A stretch of 64,000 nucleotides of DNA from Candidatus Poribacteria bacterium (GTDB lineage Bacteria; Poribacteria; WGA-4E; PCPOR2b), in contig OZ244042.1 of assembly GCA_965215015.1 (NCBI GenBank), forward strand, positions 5,280,001 through 5,344,000, read 5' to 3'. Positions within the stretch are counted from its first letter, which is position 1, and the number at the start of each line of letters is the position of its first letter. Below, piece after piece: positions 14,641 to 27,786 of the stretch. A program made the position numbers and the translations under genes. Under the pieces are notes generated by a model that was not told the origin of the DNA, ran no database searches, and saw nothing but the letters and a program-made list of their open reading frames with translations.

Positions 14641-14841
14641 AGCTTTCGTGGGAGTGTCTCACCCCTATCGCACGATAGGGACTCGTACCTCCCGTGAGAC
14701 GGAATGAGAGAACGCCTGTTAGGCAAAGCCTAACCGAGAGGCTACAAGCCATCTGACAGCGGCTAACAGACAGGATAGAGCCATTCCACTCCTAAAGGAA
14801 CAAGTAAGAATCCCAAGCCTTTAGGGGTGGGGGTACGTCAA
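14641..14841 (+). ncRNA. Candidate stand-alone IS200/IS605 omegaRNA-like structured RNA, or non-autonomous IS end
   Basis: 3' ~80 nt is homologous to 5105-5183 and ends GTACGTCAA; multiple stems; no tnpB ORF upstream. Confidence 0.55.
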
Positions 14842-15100
14842 AAGTTCATCGCTATACGTCTATCGCCCCGCCCCGATAGGTCGGGATTCAAAAGCAAGGT
14901 GCTTACTACTGTTTCCCGCTTCAATTGGGATTGGGTGTTGGGTTTCACGGTTCCCGTTTAACCCCACTCCGTTCGGAGGGTCTTCGACCTACGCGATGTC
15001 AAATGTCAACACGCCCTAGCAAAGCCATTTTTAGGTCATTTGAGGGATTTGCCCCAAAATGGACCTTCTCAAAGACGGATTGGAAATGTTTGACGGATTC

Positions 15101-15835
15101 TTAACCCTCATGATTTTGCCAATCGATTTCATCAAGTGTCTCTGCGGTCAGCACTTTCTCAAAAAGTGAATCCAAACGGGACAGACTCCGTATCAAGCTA
15201 ATCTGACTGGTTACAGATTCAGGAACGGAATCAAATCGGAACCGCAGCAGCTTGAGGAGTACCGCCTGTGTCGCTTGGGTTTTGCCCTGTTCAATGCTCT
15301 GTTCAATGCCTTGTTTAATGCCCTGTTCAATGCCTTGTTCAATACCTTGTTTAATGCCCTGTTCAATACCTTGTTCAATACCTTGTGCTTTGCCCTGTTC
15401 AATGAGATGCTCTGCCATTGTCTGCACCATGAATCCTACCTCCTCTCTATCTGAAGACTCTTGAATATGTTGGGCTACAAGTCTGCTTAACTCTTCTTTG
15501 AAATGTTTGACGGATTCTTGGCCATCATGATTTTGCCAATCGATTTCATCAAGTGTTTCTGCGGTCAGCACTTTCTCAAAGAGCGAATCCAAACGGGACA
15601 GATTCCGTATCAAGCTAATCTGATTGACTACAGATTCAGGAACGGAATCAAATCGGAACCGCAGCAGCTTGAGGAGTACCGCCTGTGTCGCTTGGGTTTT
15701 GCCCTGTTCAATGCCTTGGGCTTTGCCCCGTTCAATGCTCTGTTCAATGCCTTGTTTAATGCCCTGTTTAATGCCTTGTTTAATGCCTTGGGCTTTGCCC
15801 TGTTCAATGAGATGCTCTGCCATTGTCTGCGCCAT
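15101..15835 (-). CDS. Two fused Rpn C-terminal (RpnS/DUF4351-like) cassettes; second internal start at 15430
   Basis: Two copies of M(A/V)QTMAEHLI-(xQGx)n-...LDEIDWQNH, each preceded by GAGGAGG; CAA at 15518-15520 where other copies have TAA. Confidence 0.75.
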   Translation of the reverse strand: MAQTMAEHLIEQGKAQGIKQGIKQGIKQGIEQSIERGKAQGIEQGKTQATQAVLLKLLRFRFDSVPESVVNQISLIRNLSRLDSLFEKVLTAETLDEIDWQNHDGQESVKHFKEELSRLVAQHIQESSDREEVGFMVQTMAEHLIEQGKAQGIEQGIEQGIKQGIEQGIEQGIKQGIEQSIEQGKTQATQAVLLKLLRFRFDSVPESVTSQISLIRSLSRLDSLFEKVLTAETLDEIDWQNHEG

Positions 15836-15922
15836 GAATCCTACCTCCTCTCTATCTGAAGACTCTTGAATATGTTGGGCTACAAGTCTGCTTAACTCTT
15901 CTTTGAAATGTTTGACAGATTC

Positions 15923-16447
15923 TTAACCATCATGATTTTGCCAATCAATTTCATCAAGTGTCTCTGCAGTCAGCACTTTCTCAAAAAGTGAGTCCAAACG
16001 CGACAGACTCCGTATCAAGCTAATCTGATTGACTACAGATTCAGGAACGGAATCAAATCGGAGCCGCAGCAGCTTGAGGAGTGCCGCCTGTTTCGCTTGG
16101 GCCTCACCCTGTTCAATGAGATGCTCTGCCATTGTCTGCGCCATGAATCCTACCTCCTCTCTATCTGAAGATTCTTGAATATGTTGGGCTACAAGTCTGC
16201 TTAACTCTTCGTGCTCCGCCACAGGACGACGATGTAATATCAGCAAAAGCAGATAGGATATCGCCCGACGACGCTGCCGCGCTTGCGCTTCACCAAGAGT
16301 ATTGATGTGCAACATCGCTTCGATTAACGCACCCCTTATCACTGCCTTGGACCCATCTTCCTTTTGCAAAACCGTTAACAACCACCCAAGCGGATGGTCA
16401 GTCCGCGTCAACTTCGCTTCATCTGTCTCCTTCATACTGAGAAACAG
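15923..16447 (-). pseudogene. 5'-truncated duplicate of the rpn gene containing an intact RpnS-like ORF (15923-16144, 73 aa)
   Basis: Near-identical to the 3' half of 16521-17807; lacks the nuclease N-terminus; GAGGAGG-N7-ATG at 16144. Confidence 0.8.
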
Positions 16448-16520
16448 TTTTTAGGTCATTTGAGGGATTTGCCCCAAAATGGACCTTCTCAAAGGCAGAT
16501 TGGAAATGTTTGACGGATTC

Positions 16521-17807
16521 TTAGCCATCATGATTTTGCCAATCGATTTCATCAAGCGTCTCTGCGGTCAGCACTTTCTCAAAAAGTGAGTCCAAACGCG
16601 ACAGACTCCGTATCAAGCTAATCTGATTGACTACAGATTCAGGAACGGAATCAAATCGGAGCCGCAGCAGCTTGAGGAGTGCCGCCTGTGTCGCTCGGGC
16701 CTCACCCTGTTCAATGCCTTGTTCAATGCCTTGGGCTTTGCCTTGTTCAATACCTTGTTCAATGCCCTGTTCAATGCCTTGTTCAATGCCTTGTGCTTTG
16801 CCCTGTTCAATGCCTTGGGCTTTGCCCTGTTCAATACCTTGGGCTTTGCCCTGTTCGATACCTTCGGCTTTGCCTTGTTCGATACCTTCGGCTTTGCCTT
16901 GTTCAATGCCTTGTGCTTTGCCTTGTTCAATGCCTTGGGCTTTGCCCCGTTCAATGAGATGCTCTGCCATTGTCTGCGCCATGAGTCCTACCTCCTCTCT
17001 ATCTGAAGACTCTTGAATATGTTGGTCTACAAGTCTACTTAACTCTTCGTGCTCCACCACAGGACGACGATGTAATATCAGCAAAAGTAGATAGGATATC
17101 GCCCGACGCCGCTGCCGCGCTTCCGCTTCACCAAGAGTATTAATGTGCAACAGCGCTTCGATTAACGCACCCCTTATCACTTCCTTGGACCCATCTTCCT
17201 TTTGCAAAACCGTTAACAACCACCCAAGCGGATGATCAGTCCGCGTCAACTTCGCTTCATCTGTCTCCTTCACACTGAGAAACAGGGTGTCGAACTTCGG
17301 GACAAACCGAGAAAACACATCGGAAGTGTCCATGACTGCATCGAGGGTCAACGGGGTGCCCCATCTCTGTTCGCCGGTGTAGAATACAATCGGGAGAATC
17401 GGACGGAAACGCCACTGACTTTTGGGAACATTGTTGGATTCCCACTCCCGGCGTTGGGCATCCCAAATCTGGGTCATGTAGAACAGCACCCGAAATCCCA
17501 TTATCACATCGACGGTGGATTGGTGTTCGATGAGGATATAGATTAGCAGCTGGTCGGTTTCTGATTCGCTATGGAGTGGCACGCTAAATACGAGGTCCGA
17601 TTCCTGCTGTCGGAGGTTGTCGGTTATAAAACTCCTGTTAATCTGTGCGAGTTGGGTAAAATCGATGAGTTCTACCAGTTCGGTTGCGAGGATTTCTAAC
17701 AATCCTCGGACATTGTGTTTATCTTGAAACAACCATCGGGCACTCCGGTCGGGGAAGTGTTCAATGTGTATGTCGAAAAAATTGAGGATTTCTGTTGCTT
17801 CTACCAT
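16521..17807 (-). CDS. Rpn family recombination-promoting nuclease/putative transposase (YhgA-like PD-(D/E)xK)
   Basis: SFITDNLRQQESDLVFSV, YILIEHQSTVD, RVLFYMTQIW and PILPIVFYTG motifs; C-terminal (EQGI/K) tetrapeptide repeats; AAGGAG RBS; internal GAGGAGG-N7-ATG at 16982. Confidence 0.92.
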   Translation of the reverse strand: MVEATEILNFFDIHIEHFPDRSARWLFQDKHNVRGLLEILATELVELIDFTQLAQINRSFITDNLRQQESDLVFSVPLHSESETDQLLIYILIEHQSTVDVIMGFRVLFYMTQIWDAQRREWESNNVPKSQWRFRPILPIVFYTGEQRWGTPLTLDAVMDTSDVFSRFVPKFDTLFLSVKETDEAKLTRTDHPLGWLLTVLQKEDGSKEVIRGALIEALLHINTLGEAEARQRRRAISYLLLLILHRRPVVEHEELSRLVDQHIQESSDREEVGLMAQTMAEHLIERGKAQGIEQGKAQGIEQGKAEGIEQGKAEGIEQGKAQGIEQGKAQGIEQGKAQGIEQGIEQGIEQGIEQGKAQGIEQGIEQGEARATQAALLKLLRLRFDSVPESVVNQISLIRSLSRLDSLFEKVLTAETLDEIDWQNHDG

Positions 17808-18050
17808 AGCTCCTTAGATTTTCAAACAGGTTCTGAGACAAACCTAGAATGTCGAGATATGAATCTTGACCTACGAGTATTAGATTGGGCTAGCAGATCA
17901 GGCGAGGCCGCCCAGCTTACAAATTATGGATAAGGTTGGGGGGAGCTGTAAACCTGCCCTATCAACTCTTATAGTTTAGTATAGTTTAGTGATTCATTGT
18001 TGCACAACATGACGCACAACGCTCGATCCCAATTCCGTCAGTCCTACTTC

Positions 18051-22872: not shown

Positions 22873-22977
22873 AAACTTGGGGCATTGTTAATAATCATTA
22901 CTGTTTTTGTGTGCGAAATCCTGCCTTGACCGGCAGAAAGCCACAGGAACTATCAATCTTTCGCAAGGAGATTGGAT

Positions 22978-25900
22978 ATGCCAGAAACATCACAATTTTA
23001 CCTAGGTTTGGAGGTGGGAAGTGGGGAAATAGGAACCGGACTCCAAGGGATCCTAAATCACATCCGCGAGACTGCTACTTCCGAATACCTCATCGGTAAT
23101 GAATTTGAACGACTCATGAAACAGTATTTCTGTGTAGACCCGCTTTACAAAGAGCGGTTTACCGATGTCTATCTGTGGAAAGAGTGGGCTGCGCTCCGTA
23201 CAGAATACGACGGTGGCGATATCGGAATTGACCTCGTTGCACGAGAGAGCAACGGCGAGTACTGTGCGATTCAGTGCAAATGTTTTGCGGAGAATACACG
23301 GGTTACGAAGCCACAGATTGATTCGTTTATCTCCGCTTCAGCGGCCGAGGTGTTCACAAAGCGAATTCTTGTCCATACGGGGGCTGAGTTAGGCCCAAAC
23401 GTACGCAAAACCATCGAGCCGCTGGGGCCCGATTTCCAAGTGATTGGCTATGGCCATCTTGCCAGTCGACCGATCGACTGGCCCGATCTGCGCCATGAAG
23501 CACCGGAAAAACTGGACTATCGGGTAGAGCGGTTCGATCTGAGAGATCATCAACAGGAAGCGTTTAATGATGTTATCAACGGGTTCAAAGGTGCCGATCG
23601 GGGCAAACTCATCATGGCCTGCGGGACCGGCAAGACCTTTACCGCCCTGAAAATCGCTGAGAGGATGGCGGGTATAGGCGGTAGAGTGCTCTATCTCGTT
23701 CCATCCATTGGTTTATTTTCGCAGGCGATGCGAGAATGGGCAGAGCAGCAGGGGGTACAGCATCGTTATATAGGAATCTGTTCCGATACAAGTGCCGGTA
23801 AAAAGAGTGAGGATGTGCCCATTCAAGAATTGGAGATACCGGTCACCACAAATCCGTCCAAGATTGCTGGAGCACTGCAGAAGACAGATGCGGACGCGAT
23901 GACAGTGGTATTCTGCACCTATCATTCGCTCCCCATCGTCGAGAGTGCACAGGAACAAGGCGCGCCGGCGTTTGACCTGGTTCTTTGTGACGAGGCACAT
24001 AGAACCACCGGCATTGAGGATATTGAAAACACAACCTCTCCATTCGTGCTTGTACACAATGCTGAGCGCATTCGTGCAAAAAAGCGGCTCTACATGACCG
24101 CGACGCCACGGCTTTACACCGAAGGCGCGAAAGCAAAAGCCGCCCGCCATGACATCGAGGTGTTCTCAATGGACGACCCCGACACCTATGGCCTCGAGTT
24201 TCACCGTCTCCCCTTCTCCAGAGCCGTTGAGCAAGATCTACTCTCCGACTACAAGGTGGCAATCTTTACCATGTATGAGCCGGATGCGGCCGCGACGCTA
24301 GAAAAATATATCGGGACGGACGGGAGCGAGATTAATATTACCGATGCGACCAAGTTTGTCGGCTGCTGGCGGGCACTCCAAGACCCGGAGGGCAGGTCCG
24401 GTGACGACGCAACGAACCAGTCCCTGACACGCGCGATCGCATTCAACAACACCATCCGCAATTCAAAGCGTCTAGCCGAGCATTGGAACGGGGTGATTGA
24501 GAGTGCCATCGAACAGATGCCGGAGGACCTGCGCCCCCTCAATTTTGAATGCGAAACGCAGCATGTTGATGGGCAGCACAACGCGTTCGATCGGAAAACT
24601 CGAATCGAATGGCTGAAAGGCAGCACCGGTGCTTGTCGCATCCTCTCAAATGCGCGCTGTCTCTCCGAGGGCATTGATGTGCCCGCACTCGACGCAGTAA
24701 TCTTTATGACCCCTAAGAACTCGCATATTGACATTGTGCAAGCGGTGGGGCGTGTCATGCGGAAAGCACCGGGCAAGGAATACGGCTACATCATACTGCC
24801 GGTTGCAATTCCCCCCGGCACAGATCCCGCCGCTGCCCTCGACAACAATGAACGCTTCGCCGTTGTGTGGAATGTCCTACGCGCCTTGCGGTCCCACGAC
24901 GACAGACTCAACGCCGAAATCAACAAAATTGACCTCAGCACGGCACCCACCGATCGGATTCTCTTCCCTAACGGGGGCGGCGATGGAGACGGGGACGAGG
25001 AGGCCCTACAACAGTTAATTTCATTCGGCCTGGCAGAAATTCCGCCCCAAGATATTTACGCTAAAATTGTGGAGCGATGTGGCGACCGGAAATACTGGGA
25101 GAGCTGGGCGAAGGATGTCGCAGATATTTTTCAGCGAGTCGTCGTCCGAATCAAAAACCTACTGGACAATCCGGACAACGATGTGCTGCACGAATGGTTC
25201 AATAACTTCCATAAGGAGTTAAGAGAAACGATAAATGCCTCGATTACTCGGGACGCTGCGATTGAGATGATGGCGCAGCATCTCCTGACCCGTCCTGTCT
25301 TTGAGGCACTGTTCGAGAATTACAACTTTGCATCTGGCAACCCTGTGGCAATTGCGCTGGACAGTCTACGGAACGATTTTGGAGAATTTGGGTTTGAGGA
25401 CGAAACGCGGGATTTAGAGGGATTTTACGAAAGCGTCCGGCTGCGCGCCCGCGGCATTGACAACAGCGAAGGGCGGCAACGCGTCCTATTGGAGCTCTAC
25501 GAGAAGTTTTTCGCCACTGCCTTGAAAAAGGAAGCTGAACGGCTCGGCATCGTCTACACACCTGTTGAGGTTGTGGACTTCATCTTACACAGTGCCGCTG
25601 AAGTGTTGCGGCAGGAGTTCGGCAGAAGTCTGAGCGATGAGGGTGTTCATGTGCTCGATCCGTTCACCGGTACTGGCGTTTTTCTCGCCCGTTTGCTTCA
25701 ATCTGACCTTATCCAAGCGTCCGATCTTGAACGGAAATATCGTGAGGAGCTACATGCCAATGAGCTTGTCTTGCTGGCCTACTATATCGCGGCGGTTAAT
25801 ATAGAAGAAGCGTTCCGTGGACGACGTGGAGAAGATAGCGGCTACGAGCCGTTCAAGGGCATCGTCTTAACCGATACATTCAACCTGAACAGAGAGGGGG

Positions 25901-27786
25901 ACCCAACCCTCTTCCCGAAAGAGTGGCTGCCGGACAACAACGCCCGCGCCGAACGTCAACAGAAACTCCCTATCCAAATCATCGTTGGGAACCCACCTTG
26001 GTCAGCAGGGCAGAAGAGTTCAGCGGACGACAACCCCAACGTAGACTATCCTGCACTTGAAAAACGCATTGCAGAAACCTACGCCGCCCGGTCCATAACT
26101 ACGAATAAAAACAGTCTCTATGACACATACAAGATGGCAATCCGCTGGGCATCGGACAGAGTTCAGGAACAGGGAATCATCGCCTTTGTTACCAACGGTT
26201 CGTGGATTGATGGAAACGTTGATACAGGTATTCGGGCATGTTTTGCCGAGGAGTTTAGTTCAATCTATGTCCTGAACTTGCGCGGAAATCAACGTACTCA
26301 GGGAGAACGTTCACGTTGTGAGGGAGGCAAAGTATTTGGTTCAGGCTCAAGGGCACCCGTTGCTATCACAATACTGGTCAAAAATCCGAACGCTGCACAC
26401 AACGGTTGTCTCATCCGCTATTGTGATATCGGTAGCTATCTTAGCCGCGAGCAGAAGCTGGAAGCACTTCACGACGCACAGTCAATCTCGGGGTTCAGCG
26501 ATTGGCAAAAGATCACGCCCGATAAGCATTACGATTGGATTGGACAGCGCAGCGAAGCGTTTGCTCGGTTCTATCCGATGGGATCGAAGGAGACTAAGGC
26601 GGGTAAGGCGGACAATGCAATATTCAGGTTGTATTCGCAGGGATTGAAGACAGGCAGAGACTCATATCTCTACAATTTCTCTCGTGATGCCTGTGCCGAG
26701 AATGCGCTGCGAATGACGCAGGATTACCTTGCTGCGTTCTCCGATAGGGAACAGAACCCTAAACTCACGGAAGAGGCGGCTGCGCGACGTCACTCATCAA
26801 ATCTTAAGTGGGATCGGGAGCTCAAGAACAATCTGAAGCGAAAGAAAAAGCCCCAATTTGAGGATGGCTACATTCGGAAGGTTGTGTATCGACCCTTCGT
26901 TGCCACGAATTGTTACGCGGACTACACCTTCGTACAGATGAAGTACCAGATGGATCGAATTTTCCCAGACAGTGCGATCGAAAATCGCGCGATATGTGTT
27001 CCCGGCATCGGCTCGAAAAAGGCATTTTCCGCGCTTATAACCGATACAGTGCCGGATCTTGGTTTTAATAATGCCTCACAGTGCTTCCCGCGGTACCGAT
27101 ATCGGAAGCCGACGGATGCGACGGATACGGCAAAAGTGCAGGACGAGTTTCCGGGGATTCAACCGAAGCCGGATTGCATTGACAACATCTCAGATCTGGC
27201 GTTCCGCTCCTTCCGTGAGCATTATCGCGATGATACAATCACAAAAGATGCAATATTTGATTATGTTTACGGGATTCTACATTCTCCGAGTTATCGAGAA
27301 GAATTCGCAAACGATTTGTCGAAGGAGATACCTCGTATCCCATTCGCCCCCGATTTCCACGCCTTCGCAGAAGCTGGGAAAACACTTGCAGCACTCCACC
27401 TCGGTTATGAGACGTGCGAACAGTACCCGCTCTCCCTCGTGTTTGCTCATAACGGGGAGCCGCAACCGCATCATTTTCGGTTGACTGAGAAGGCGATGTG
27501 TTTCGCTACGCCTGCAAAAACGACGCTCATTATCAACGAGCACCTACGCTTATCGGGTATCCCGCAGGCGGCGCATCAGTACGTCGTCAACGGCAGAACG
27601 CCGCTGGAGTGGTTCATTGACCGCTACAAGATAAAACGGGACAGGGACAGCGGTATTCGCAACGATCCGAACGGTTGGTTTGCAGACCCCCGTGATCTGG
27701 TCACAGCCATCGAACGCATCGTTTATGTCAGTGTGGAATCAACTCGGGTTATTGAAGAGTTGCCTTCTCTTTTGTCTGAATCATGA
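22978..27786 (+). CDS. Type ISP restriction-modification enzyme (LlaGI/LlaBIII-like: Mrr nuclease, SF2 helicase, N6-adenine MTase, TRD)
   Basis: DIGIDLVA...QCK; MACGTGKT, DEAH, TATP and QAVGRVMR; DPFTGTG and GNPPW; C-terminal DLSKEIPRIP and YVVNGRTPLEW; AAGGAG RBS. Confidence 0.95.
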   Translation: MPETSQFYLGLEVGSGEIGTGLQGILNHIRETATSEYLIGNEFERLMKQYFCVDPLYKERFTDVYLWKEWAALRTEYDGGDIGIDLVARESNGEYCAIQCKCFAENTRVTKPQIDSFISASAAEVFTKRILVHTGAELGPNVRKTIEPLGPDFQVIGYGHLASRPIDWPDLRHEAPEKLDYRVERFDLRDHQQEAFNDVINGFKGADRGKLIMACGTGKTFTALKIAERMAGIGGRVLYLVPSIGLFSQAMREWAEQQGVQHRYIGICSDTSAGKKSEDVPIQELEIPVTTNPSKIAGALQKTDADAMTVVFCTYHSLPIVESAQEQGAPAFDLVLCDEAHRTTGIEDIENTTSPFVLVHNAERIRAKKRLYMTATPRLYTEGAKAKAARHDIEVFSMDDPDTYGLEFHRLPFSRAVEQDLLSDYKVAIFTMYEPDAAATLEKYIGTDGSEINITDATKFVGCWRALQDPEGRSGDDATNQSLTRAIAFNNTIRNSKRLAEHWNGVIESAIEQMPEDLRPLNFECETQHVDGQHNAFDRKTRIEWLKGSTGACRILSNARCLSEGIDVPALDAVIFMTPKNSHIDIVQAVGRVMRKAPGKEYGYIILPVAIPPGTDPAAALDNNERFAVVWNVLRALRSHDDRLNAEINKIDLSTAPTDRILFPNGGGDGDGDEEALQQLISFGLAEIPPQDIYAKIVERCGDRKYWESWAKDVADIFQRVVVRIKNLLDNPDNDVLHEWFNNFHKELRETINASITRDAAIEMMAQHLLTRPVFEALFENYNFASGNPVAIALDSLRNDFGEFGFEDETRDLEGFYESVRLRARGIDNSEGRQRVLLELYEKFFATALKKEAERLGIVYTPVEVVDFILHSAAEVLRQEFGRSLSDEGVHVLDPFTGTGVFLARLLQSDLIQASDLERKYREELHANELVLLAYYIAAVNIEEAFRGRRGEDSGYEPFKGIVLTDTFNLNREGDPTLFPKEWLPDNNARAERQQKLPIQIIVGNPPWSAGQKSSADDNPNVDYPALEKRIAETYAARSITTNKNSLYDTYKMAIRWASDRVQEQGIIAFVTNGSWIDGNVDTGIRACFAEEFSSIYVLNLRGNQRTQGERSRCEGGKVFGSGSRAPVAITILVKNPNAAHNGCLIRYCDIGSYLSREQKLEALHDAQSISGFSDWQKITPDKHYDWIGQRSEAFARFYPMGSKETKAGKADNAIFRLYSQGLKTGRDSYLYNFSRDACAENALRMTQDYLAAFSDREQNPKLTEEAAARRHSSNLKWDRELKNNLKRKKKPQFEDGYIRKVVYRPFVATNCYADYTFVQMKYQMDRIFPDSAIENRAICVPGIGSKKAFSALITDTVPDLGFNNASQCFPRYRYRKPTDATDTAKVQDEFPGIQPKPDCIDNISDLAFRSFREHYRDDTITKDAIFDYVYGILHSPSYREEFANDLSKEIPRIPFAPDFHAFAEAGKTLAALHLGYETCEQYPLSLVFAHNGEPQPHHFRLTEKAMCFATPAKTTLIINEHLRLSGIPQAAHQYVVNGRTPLEWFIDRYKIKRDRDSGIRNDPNGWFADPRDLVTAIERIVYVSVESTRVIEELPSLLSES

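Follow-up and report, generated by a model that had tools for sequence, protein, structure and literature searches.

We analyzed a 64,000-nucleotide (nt) stretch of DNA from Candidatus Poribacteria bacterium (assembly GCA_965215015.1, contig OZ244042.1, positions 5,280,001 to 5,344,000), called the window below, in which the 3' end of an intact rpn gene recurs downstream in three partial copies, all on the minus strand. The array holds two kinds of illegitimate junction, J1 and J2. The six cassettes of this genome, as we term the downstream copies together with the tails of the two genes they resemble, are heavily mosaic, with patches exchanged by gene conversion. Overall, the downstream copies are probably best explained as spare RpnS modules made by recombination, which would also supply alternative tails to the gene.

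In Escherichia coli and other bacteria, the toxicity of RpnL is blocked by RpnS, which is nested in the same gene (Zhong et al. 2023, PMC10400941, cited throughout from part of its text). RpnS proteins contain a variable number of four-residue repeats that start 8 to 20 residues after the methionine (PMC10400941). In the single pair tested, RpnC-S no longer inhibited RpnC-L once it had been given one more repeat (PMC10400941), and according to a commentary in PNAS, repeat variation should prevent inhibition in trans (PMC10400984). How the repeat number changes, where downstream copies originate, and what drives the variation were left open in the part of the paper cited here (PMC10400941).

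The features of the array are listed below (ORF, open reading frame; RBS, ribosome-binding site; aa, amino acids).

16521..17807, minus strand: intact rpn gene encoding RpnL, 428 aa (ORF list; AAGGAG RBS before the ATG)
17205..17750, minus strand: PD-(D/E)XK nuclease domain, residues 20-201 (PF04754 profile match)
16980..16999, minus strand: internal RBS and ATG inside rpn (motif search)
16521..16982, minus strand: nested RpnS ORF, 153 aa, 21 four-residue repeats, repeat tract 16698-16949 (repeat parsing)
16436..16520, minus strand: copy of the 3' flank between rpn and copy 2, with junction J1 at 16448/16447 (direct reading)
15923..16447, minus strand: copy 2, rpn truncated 5' at about codon 174 (91% identity over residues 173-291)
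15923..16144, minus strand: free-standing RpnS-type ORF of copy 2, 73 aa, 1 repeat, RBS and ATG at 16142-16161
15902-15922, minus strand: junction J2 before cassette 3, an 18-nt flank remnant plus AAA (direct reading)
15518..15901, minus strand: cassette 3, with 22 upstream codons (EELSR...), RBS and ATG at 15833-15852, and a 105-aa module with 9 repeats
15101..15835, minus strand: 244-aa ORF comprising the cassette 3 module, a 30-residue linker, and the cassette 4 module, in frame
15101..15496, minus strand: cassette 4, with junction J2, RBS and ATG at 15428-15447, and a 109-aa ORF (15430..15101) with 10 repeats

RpnL matched the PF04754 profile (YhgA-like/Transposase_31) over residues 20-201 with an E value of 7.4e-28 and a score of 98 bits, the cutoff being 21; matches to the NCBIfam Rpn models TIGR01784 and RpnA stayed below their cutoffs. 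The catalytic residues of RpnA, defined by mutation, are D11, D63, E82, Q84, and R94 (PMC5350276, also cited from part of its text). By spacing, not by alignment, these correspond to D20, D71, E94, Q96, and R106 of RpnL, all five of which were invariant across 31 related N-terminal domains (N-domains). A profile search identified the last 55 residues (366-420) of RpnL as a DUF4351-like (PF14261) tail. Single tails scored 18 to 22 bits against this family (E values of 0.003 and 0.0002), under the 25-bit cutoff, and the 244-aa ORF scored 41.7 bits; in a search of the whole genome, one of the four window tails reached the cutoff. Taking identity and origin jointly, it is very likely that the locus is an Rpn toxin-antitoxin gene with a putative PD-(D/E)XK nuclease, RpnL, and a nested RpnS that could be translated separately. 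A sequence-only reading had already called the locus an Rpn nuclease with RpnS-like cassettes. That identity held up (PF04754, DUF4351-type tail, repeats), but it is not new; free-standing downstream RpnS genes, termed RpnSs, have been published (PMC10400941).

The rpn stop codon is followed by 73 nt of the gene's own 3' flank, which recur past the last cassette (15028-15100 is 97% identical to 16448-16520). At J1, this flank is joined to rpn codon ~174. Copy 2, which begins there, carries no nuclease catalytic residue, and within it a GTG-to-ATG change opens a 170-aa ORF (16435..15923) that has no RBS. At J2, the stop codon and 18 nt of flank are joined to EELSR codons, 22 codons before the internal ATG. 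This junction is identical at 15901 and 15496 and is also present at a second rpn locus described below. Because cassette 3 has CAA at 15520-15518 in place of the TAA stop found in the other copies, cassettes 3 and 4 form a single 244-aa double-module ORF. No aligned sequencing run reported another letter at position 15520, although this does not exclude one. Despite its fusion with cassette 3, cassette 4 retains its own RBS and ATG. The array would thus be predicted to yield free RpnS-type proteins of 73 aa, 244 aa (the double module), and 109 aa.

The 5.94-Mb genome contains six copies of a 20-nt motif, GAGAGGAGGTAGGAYTCATG, four of them in the window and two at the second rpn locus. The ATGs linked to it in the window lie at 16982, 16144, 15835, and 15430. 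Inside rpn, GAGAGGAGG stands 8 nt before the in-frame ATG at 16982, and a GAGGAGG site precedes the ATG by 7 nt in each of the four window copies and also in relatives. From each ATG, the ORF runs through an 11-residue head (MAQTMAEHLIE), a series of four-residue units of the QGIE/QGKA type, and a 58-residue tail; relatives have the same head behind an RBS, both in their gene tails and in their extra cassettes. The first repeat starts at residue 12 of the small ORF, which falls within the published range of 8 to 20 (PMC10400941). The repeat tracts of 252, 12, 108, and 120 nt correspond to 21, 1, 9, and 10 units, and the only other counts for this subfamily in the genome are 7 and 4, at the second locus. 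Tandem Repeats Finder described the array as 2.5 copies of a 405-nt period with 91% matches. The features described by the sequence-only reading were all borne out, at the coordinates it gave: the full gene with three copies of its C terminus, the four putative internal starts with a common GAGGAGG site, the four repeat counts, and the two duplication junctions at the same EELSR point. It had overlooked that copy 2 is a truncated gene, that cassettes 3 and 4 are fused, and that there is a second locus.

An AlphaFold2 model of the 73-aa protein (mean predicted local distance difference test [pLDDT] score, 84) contained helices at residues 5-29, 35-42, and 47-59. This arrangement of one long first helix and two short ones agrees with the published description of RpnS, a bundle of three helices of which the first is long (PDB 7TH0; PMC10400941). 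The 244-aa model showed two helical modules, with first helices of 60 and 71 residues and a linker whose pLDDT fell below 50 at residues 104-110. In line with the published view (PMC10400941), the repeats would thus make the first helix longer. Neither phmmer, a profile search, Foldseek, nor VIA-align (best Z score, 6.7, to generic bundles) reached the solved structure of RpnA-S, 7TH0.

The genome, assembled as a single 5.94-Mb contig, contains eight PF04754 genes. The second locus of the subfamily (G000:C1:2411846-2413327) consists of a 7-repeat gene (G000 2413327..2412209, 372 aa) whose N-domain is 97% identical to that of RpnL, followed by J2, one 4-repeat cassette, and then the same 82-nt 3' flank. 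Since J2 is found at both loci, it is either older than the split between them or has been copied from one to the other. When the six cassettes, two gene tails included, were compared, 29 of 294 nonrepeat sites varied, 15 of them at third codon positions. In a four-gamete test, 56 of the 91 pairs of informative sites were incompatible, which sets the minimum number of recombination events in these 294 nt at five. We conclude from these incompatible pairs that the cassettes and gene tails of two loci 2.9 Mb apart exchange sequence. In a tree of tails, the six cassettes formed one clade, as did the four cassettes of a relative's locus, L023. A plausible history is that J2 formed once and was then amplified by unequal homologous recombination, being copied to, or shared with, the second locus.

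Five further Rpn paralogues belong to another subfamily (G000:C1 1505630-1506388, 1516650-1517384, 1623468-1624550, 3834997-3835950, and 5220936-5221994). They carry EGKQEGLL/EGKREGRV-type repeats, in numbers that vary from copy to copy, and a helix-turn-helix-like tail. None of the extra DUF4351 matches in the genome lay at these five loci.

We looked across 33 rpn genes of this subfamily to determine how common such arrays are. Of these, 32 came from Poribacteria loci, among them the window locus, after removal of two duplicates, and one was the gene of the second locus. The sample consists of the best matches to RpnL, so that its members are kin and not independent, and loci L017-L027 came with only 1.5 kb of flank. 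Such arrays are common in relatives: at least one extra downstream cassette followed 14 of the 33 genes, and at least two followed 4 of the 33 (three in the window, three in L023, and two each in L027 and L029). An open frame, an ATG, and an RBS were kept in 17 of the 20 extra cassettes. The other three had decayed, one through an internal stop, one through loss of the RBS, and one through truncation. The open frame upstream of the cassette ATG ranged from 5 to 102 codons among lineages, which suggests independent junctions, with the start signals kept in each. A profile of the tail, run over loci L048-L103 outside Poribacteria, returned five single matches and no array, and the other distant matches are probably to the low-complexity repeat part.

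In-frame double modules recur, as a 191-aa ORF in L023 and as P0022 (204 aa, 40% identity); with the 244-aa ORF as the query, they accounted for 2 of the 120 proteins listed with a query coverage of 98% or more. Among metagenome proteins, Rpn ORFs truncated at the N terminus, 170 to 242 aa long, with a full tail and no nuclease-domain match, were frequent (P0003, P0009, P0015, P0016, P0019, P0027-P0029, P0031, and P0033). One of them, P0019, has its first residue (MKETDEA...) exactly where the 170-aa ORF of copy 2 begins.

Evidence that a cassette-type tail can replace the tail of a gene came from loci L019 and L021. The N-domains of the two genes are sisters and are 94% identical. The L021 gene tail, on the other hand, is 97% identical to the extra cassette of L019 and 89% identical to the L019 gene tail, which groups with the tails of L018 and L020; elsewhere in the tree, cassettes also group with the tails of other loci. 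The simplest reading is therefore that the L021 gene acquired a cassette-type tail.

We then considered whether the extra cassettes might act as a bank of antitoxins in trans, inhibiting RpnL whatever their helix length and serving either as a dosage buffer or as immunity to paralogous or incoming Rpn proteins of matching length. Conservation of the RBS, ATG, and open frame in most relatives' cassettes would be expected of such a bank, as would the purifying selection described below, and the E. coli protein RpnE-Ss has been detected (PMC10400941). Two relatives offer matches of the required kind. In L021, the cassette equals its own upstream gene tail (85/85 aa), and in L022, the cassette that follows gene 2 has the type and length of the gene 1 tail (73/73 aa). 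The L021 case is, however, the only one among the 17 intact extra cassettes in which the length is that of the cassette's own upstream gene tail, and when five further genomes were scanned for a gene tail of the same type and length as a cassette, only the L022 case was matched (a nonexhaustive pattern scan that left several places unparsed). In the window genome, the two toxins of this subfamily have 21 and 7 repeats and the cassettes have 1, 9, 10, and 4, so that no cassette equals either RpnL. Because one extra repeat abolished inhibition in the published pair (PMC10400941), the cassette proteins would not neutralize the resident 21- or 7-repeat RpnL if that rule is general. The dosage or cross-neutralization bank put forward by the sequence-only reading is therefore disfavored, on an argument drawn from one test, and we regard it as unlikely.

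The full layout of L022 (G015:C1:3582605-3586504), which holds two tandem rpn genes, is reciprocal. Gene 1 has a tail of type X (73 aa) and a cassette of type Y (77 aa), and gene 2 has a tail of type Y (81 aa) and a cassette of type X (73 aa).

Another view would make the cassettes neutral debris, recent and functionless by-products of Rpn-promoted or slippage-driven duplication that are now decaying. RpnL itself has been suggested as a possible generator of copies (Zhong et al., PMC10400941), the cassettes of the window genome form a single recent clade, copy 2 is a truncated gene, cassette 3 has lost its stop codon, and three relatives' cassettes have decayed. The few differences within the window array give noisy ratios of nonsynonymous to synonymous substitution rates (dN/dS) of 0 to 0.64. 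Across species, however, Nei-Gojobori estimates over 59 codons (the head and tail core) were low. For cassettes at corresponding positions in L026 and L047, dN/dS was 0.11, with 16 synonymous and 7 nonsynonymous differences at a dS of 0.50, and for the L019 and L021 cassettes it was 0.12 (7 synonymous and 3 nonsynonymous differences); the L035 and L017 cassettes gave 0.46 on 9 differences. The two cassettes within L029 are both still open at a dS of 0.85, with a dN/dS of 0.26. Corresponding gene tails gave 0.02 to 0.34. When all pairs were pooled, the ratio of nonsynonymous to synonymous differences per site (pN/pS) was equal for the two classes, at 0.33 for cassette pairs and 0.35 for gene-tail pairs. 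Retention of an RBS and ATG behind open frames of such different lengths, which suggests independent junctions, also argues against debris. These comparisons suggest that the cassettes are probably selected coding genes, and we consider it quite improbable that they are debris.

Short contigs from four public runs, belonging to four studies, reproduced copy-specific sequence, and in one run, X8, a 137-nt contig spanned the junction between cassettes 3 and 4. Although the region is repetitive, no short contig spans the whole array, and a 104-nt bin (16564-16667) had no cover in three of the four runs, it is extremely improbable that one rpn tail was expanded by misassembly of the 12-nt repeat region, given the 29 differing nonrepeat sites, the two distinct junction types, a genome assembled as one 5.94-Mb contig, the copy-specific contigs, and the same architecture in at least 10 other assemblies. 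The contigs over the array are about 90 to 550 nt long, which is not enough to establish in what order the copies stand.

In a 242-nt contig of run X8, from another study, the head of cassette 3 was followed by the tail of cassette 4 (15292/15782), with about 3 repeats, which points to a related population with a shorter cassette or one cassette fewer. The check for length variation suggested by the sequence-only reading thus found this shorter cassette and the varied lengths in relatives, whereas copy order could not be proven from short contigs. Other joints were rejected. One from 17871 to 15001 with 32 additional letters (X1, X5, and X6) had been a candidate circle or tandem junction of the unit, but the 32 letters lie inside intact copies of an interspersed repeat that is present six times in the genome (one exact and five with 2 to 4 mismatches). 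A joint from 14964 to 17851 (X5, 21 letters on the shorter side), which might have marked an empty site, probably reflects the same repeat. Joints from 16728 to 16897 (X6) and from 16109 to 16756 (X5), considered as variation, are those expected of contigs from the 7-repeat second locus.

Returning to the reading that we favor, the cassettes, if the one-repeat rule is general, would mainly matter as antitoxin modules, displaced or kept in reserve, from which the gene can draw alternative tails. A single crossover or conversion between the gene tail and a cassette could yield an RpnL with a new helix length, and because RpnS is nested in the same DNA, the matched antitoxin would be gained in the same step. 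The sequence-only reading had raised a cassette reservoir of this kind. The incompatible site pairs and the L021 tail lend it comparative support, but nothing points to a programmed switch, and tail supply most likely acts over evolutionary time.

Several observations weigh against this reading. The L021 and L022 cassettes match a nearby toxin in type and length; the mismatch rule comes from one published test of one extra repeat in RpnC, in a distant organism (PMC10400941); and the case for tail replacement rests on 177 aligned nt. The order of the copies depends on the single-contig assembly and one short contig across a junction. Within the window array, the dN/dS values are noisy, and elsewhere the low values could come partly from time spent as gene tails or from refreshment by gene conversion. 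Purifying selection, for its part, points to a direct function of the proteins, which a pure spare-part role leaves unexplained. That tail supply is the selected role of the cassettes is conceivable, and we lean somewhat against it; that length-mismatched RpnS arrays are a selected tail library whose cassette proteins are also directly functional seems to us doubtful.

Were a tail library to exist, the specificity of a defense toxin could be switched without a lethal intermediate, as in the orphan modules of contact-dependent growth inhibition (CDI) and Rhs systems. Direct roles for the cassette proteins, single-chain double modules included, would then account for their purifying selection; immunity to length-matched Rpn variants and tuning of RpnL release are examples. 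Should the cassettes turn out to be inert, the locus would be no more than a longer version of what has been published. The Poribacteria loci form a natural series in which a toxin has several free antitoxin copies that are nearly always mismatched, conserved as coding sequence, and recombining with its tail. They sharpen the paradox of why antitoxins that should not fit are retained. The window locus lets the length-matching rule be probed with 21 repeats against 1, 9, and 10 and with a natural fusion of 9 and 10.

The flanks of the array contain three further features.

17923..17952, minus strand: promoter-like site upstream of rpn, TTTACA, an 18-nt spacer, and CATAAT (consensus match only)
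15019..15100, minus strand: 3' flank common to the second rpn locus, end of the shared unit (91% identity to G000 2411783-2411863)
14899..15022, no strand assigned: interspersed genome-wide repeat abutting the array, outside the rpn unit (genome search)

The promoter-like site was the only one on the minus strand between 14900 and 18100, where 2 sites were found against 3.5 expected from shuffled sequences. A scan found no terminator-like site between the copies, which suggests that the cassettes are probably cotranscribed with rpn, each with its internal RBS and ATG. The scan returned only two weak terminator-like hairpins (7 pairs and a T-rich run), at 15990-16010 and 16588-16608 on the minus strand, both within coding sequence, in the tails of copy 2 and rpn; the stem is altered in cassettes 3 and 4.

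Both flanks of the window locus are interspersed genome-wide repeats. Repeats of this kind, at 14762-14843, 14899-15022, and 17835-17927, have about 20 to 30 partial copies in the genome, and an intact one consists of a terminus, a 32-nt core, and a terminus. Both rpn loci stop exactly at a terminus of such an element, and the rpn unit lies between the two members of a 13-nt near-repeat (CGTAGGTC(G)AAGA). The neighboring genes are ordinary, encoding efflux components, a TolB-like protein, an FGE-sulfatase-type protein, and a BNR-repeat protein. The only other defense-type gene among the ten neighboring ORFs scanned is found at a distance of 5 kb (22972-27786, plus strand); it encodes a 1604-aa Type ISP restriction-modification enzyme with Mrr-like nuclease, helicase, methylase, and specificity domains.

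Arrays of partial gene copies are familiar from other systems. The orphan modules of cdiA and rhs are tandem 5'-truncated copies of the 3' end of a polymorphic toxin gene, with upstream homology that allows tip exchange. The window array resembles them in both respects. An orphan module, however, comprises a toxin tip and a separate immunity gene, whereas here the module is an antitoxin/oligomerization tail nested in the toxin gene, and specificity would lie in helix length, not in sequence. In Neisseria, one expressed pilE gene exchanges sequence by gene conversion with promoterless partial copies, pilS, which are untranslated. The window locus likewise pairs a full-length gene with promoterless partial copies that exchange sequence, but its cassettes, unlike pilS, keep their own RBS and ATG. 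No dedicated conversion machinery or G-quadruplex (G4)-type initiator turned up here, neither being searched for. A four-residue helical repeat whose number alters specificity is also known from the TAEL repeats of HsdS in EcoR124I/EcoR124II (PMC10400941, Discussion). There, the repeats set spacing in DNA recognition within one subunit, with no toxin-antitoxin pairing and no cassette array.

The closest known counterparts are the RpnSs of E. coli. At rpnE-ypaA and at rpnC/RpnC-Ss, an Rpn gene with a nested RpnS is followed by a downstream gene (ypaA after rpnE) that duplicates the RpnS part and contains DUF4351 (PMC10400941). RpnSs were described as having arisen by duplication of the upstream gene and as being lost by fusion to an N-terminal domain, and rpn arrays formed by tandem duplication were also reported (PMC10400941). 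The window cassettes fit this class, being separate ORFs that duplicate RpnS and cluster in the tree with the tail of the upstream gene, and they share with the E. coli RpnSs the four-residue repeats in the first helix and an origin by duplication of the upstream gene. They differ in number, with one copy there and three here, and in that no two of the three have the same repeat number and none has that of the gene. Here, moreover, one copy is a larger truncation of the gene, two copies are fused in frame, and the host belongs to the phylum Poribacteria and is not an enterobacterium. By title, the relevant literature consisted of Zhong et al. 2023, its PNAS commentary, and Kingston et al. 2017, and no listed title dealt with RpnS arrays in Poribacteria; the supplements of PMC10400941, which lay outside the search, may show multicopy arrays. 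The locus is thus an extended example of the known Rpn/RpnSs kind, differing in degree. It goes beyond the published cases in having three copies downstream, each of a different length, in its naturally fused double module, and in the comparative evidence of selection on the cassettes and of their exchange with the gene tail.

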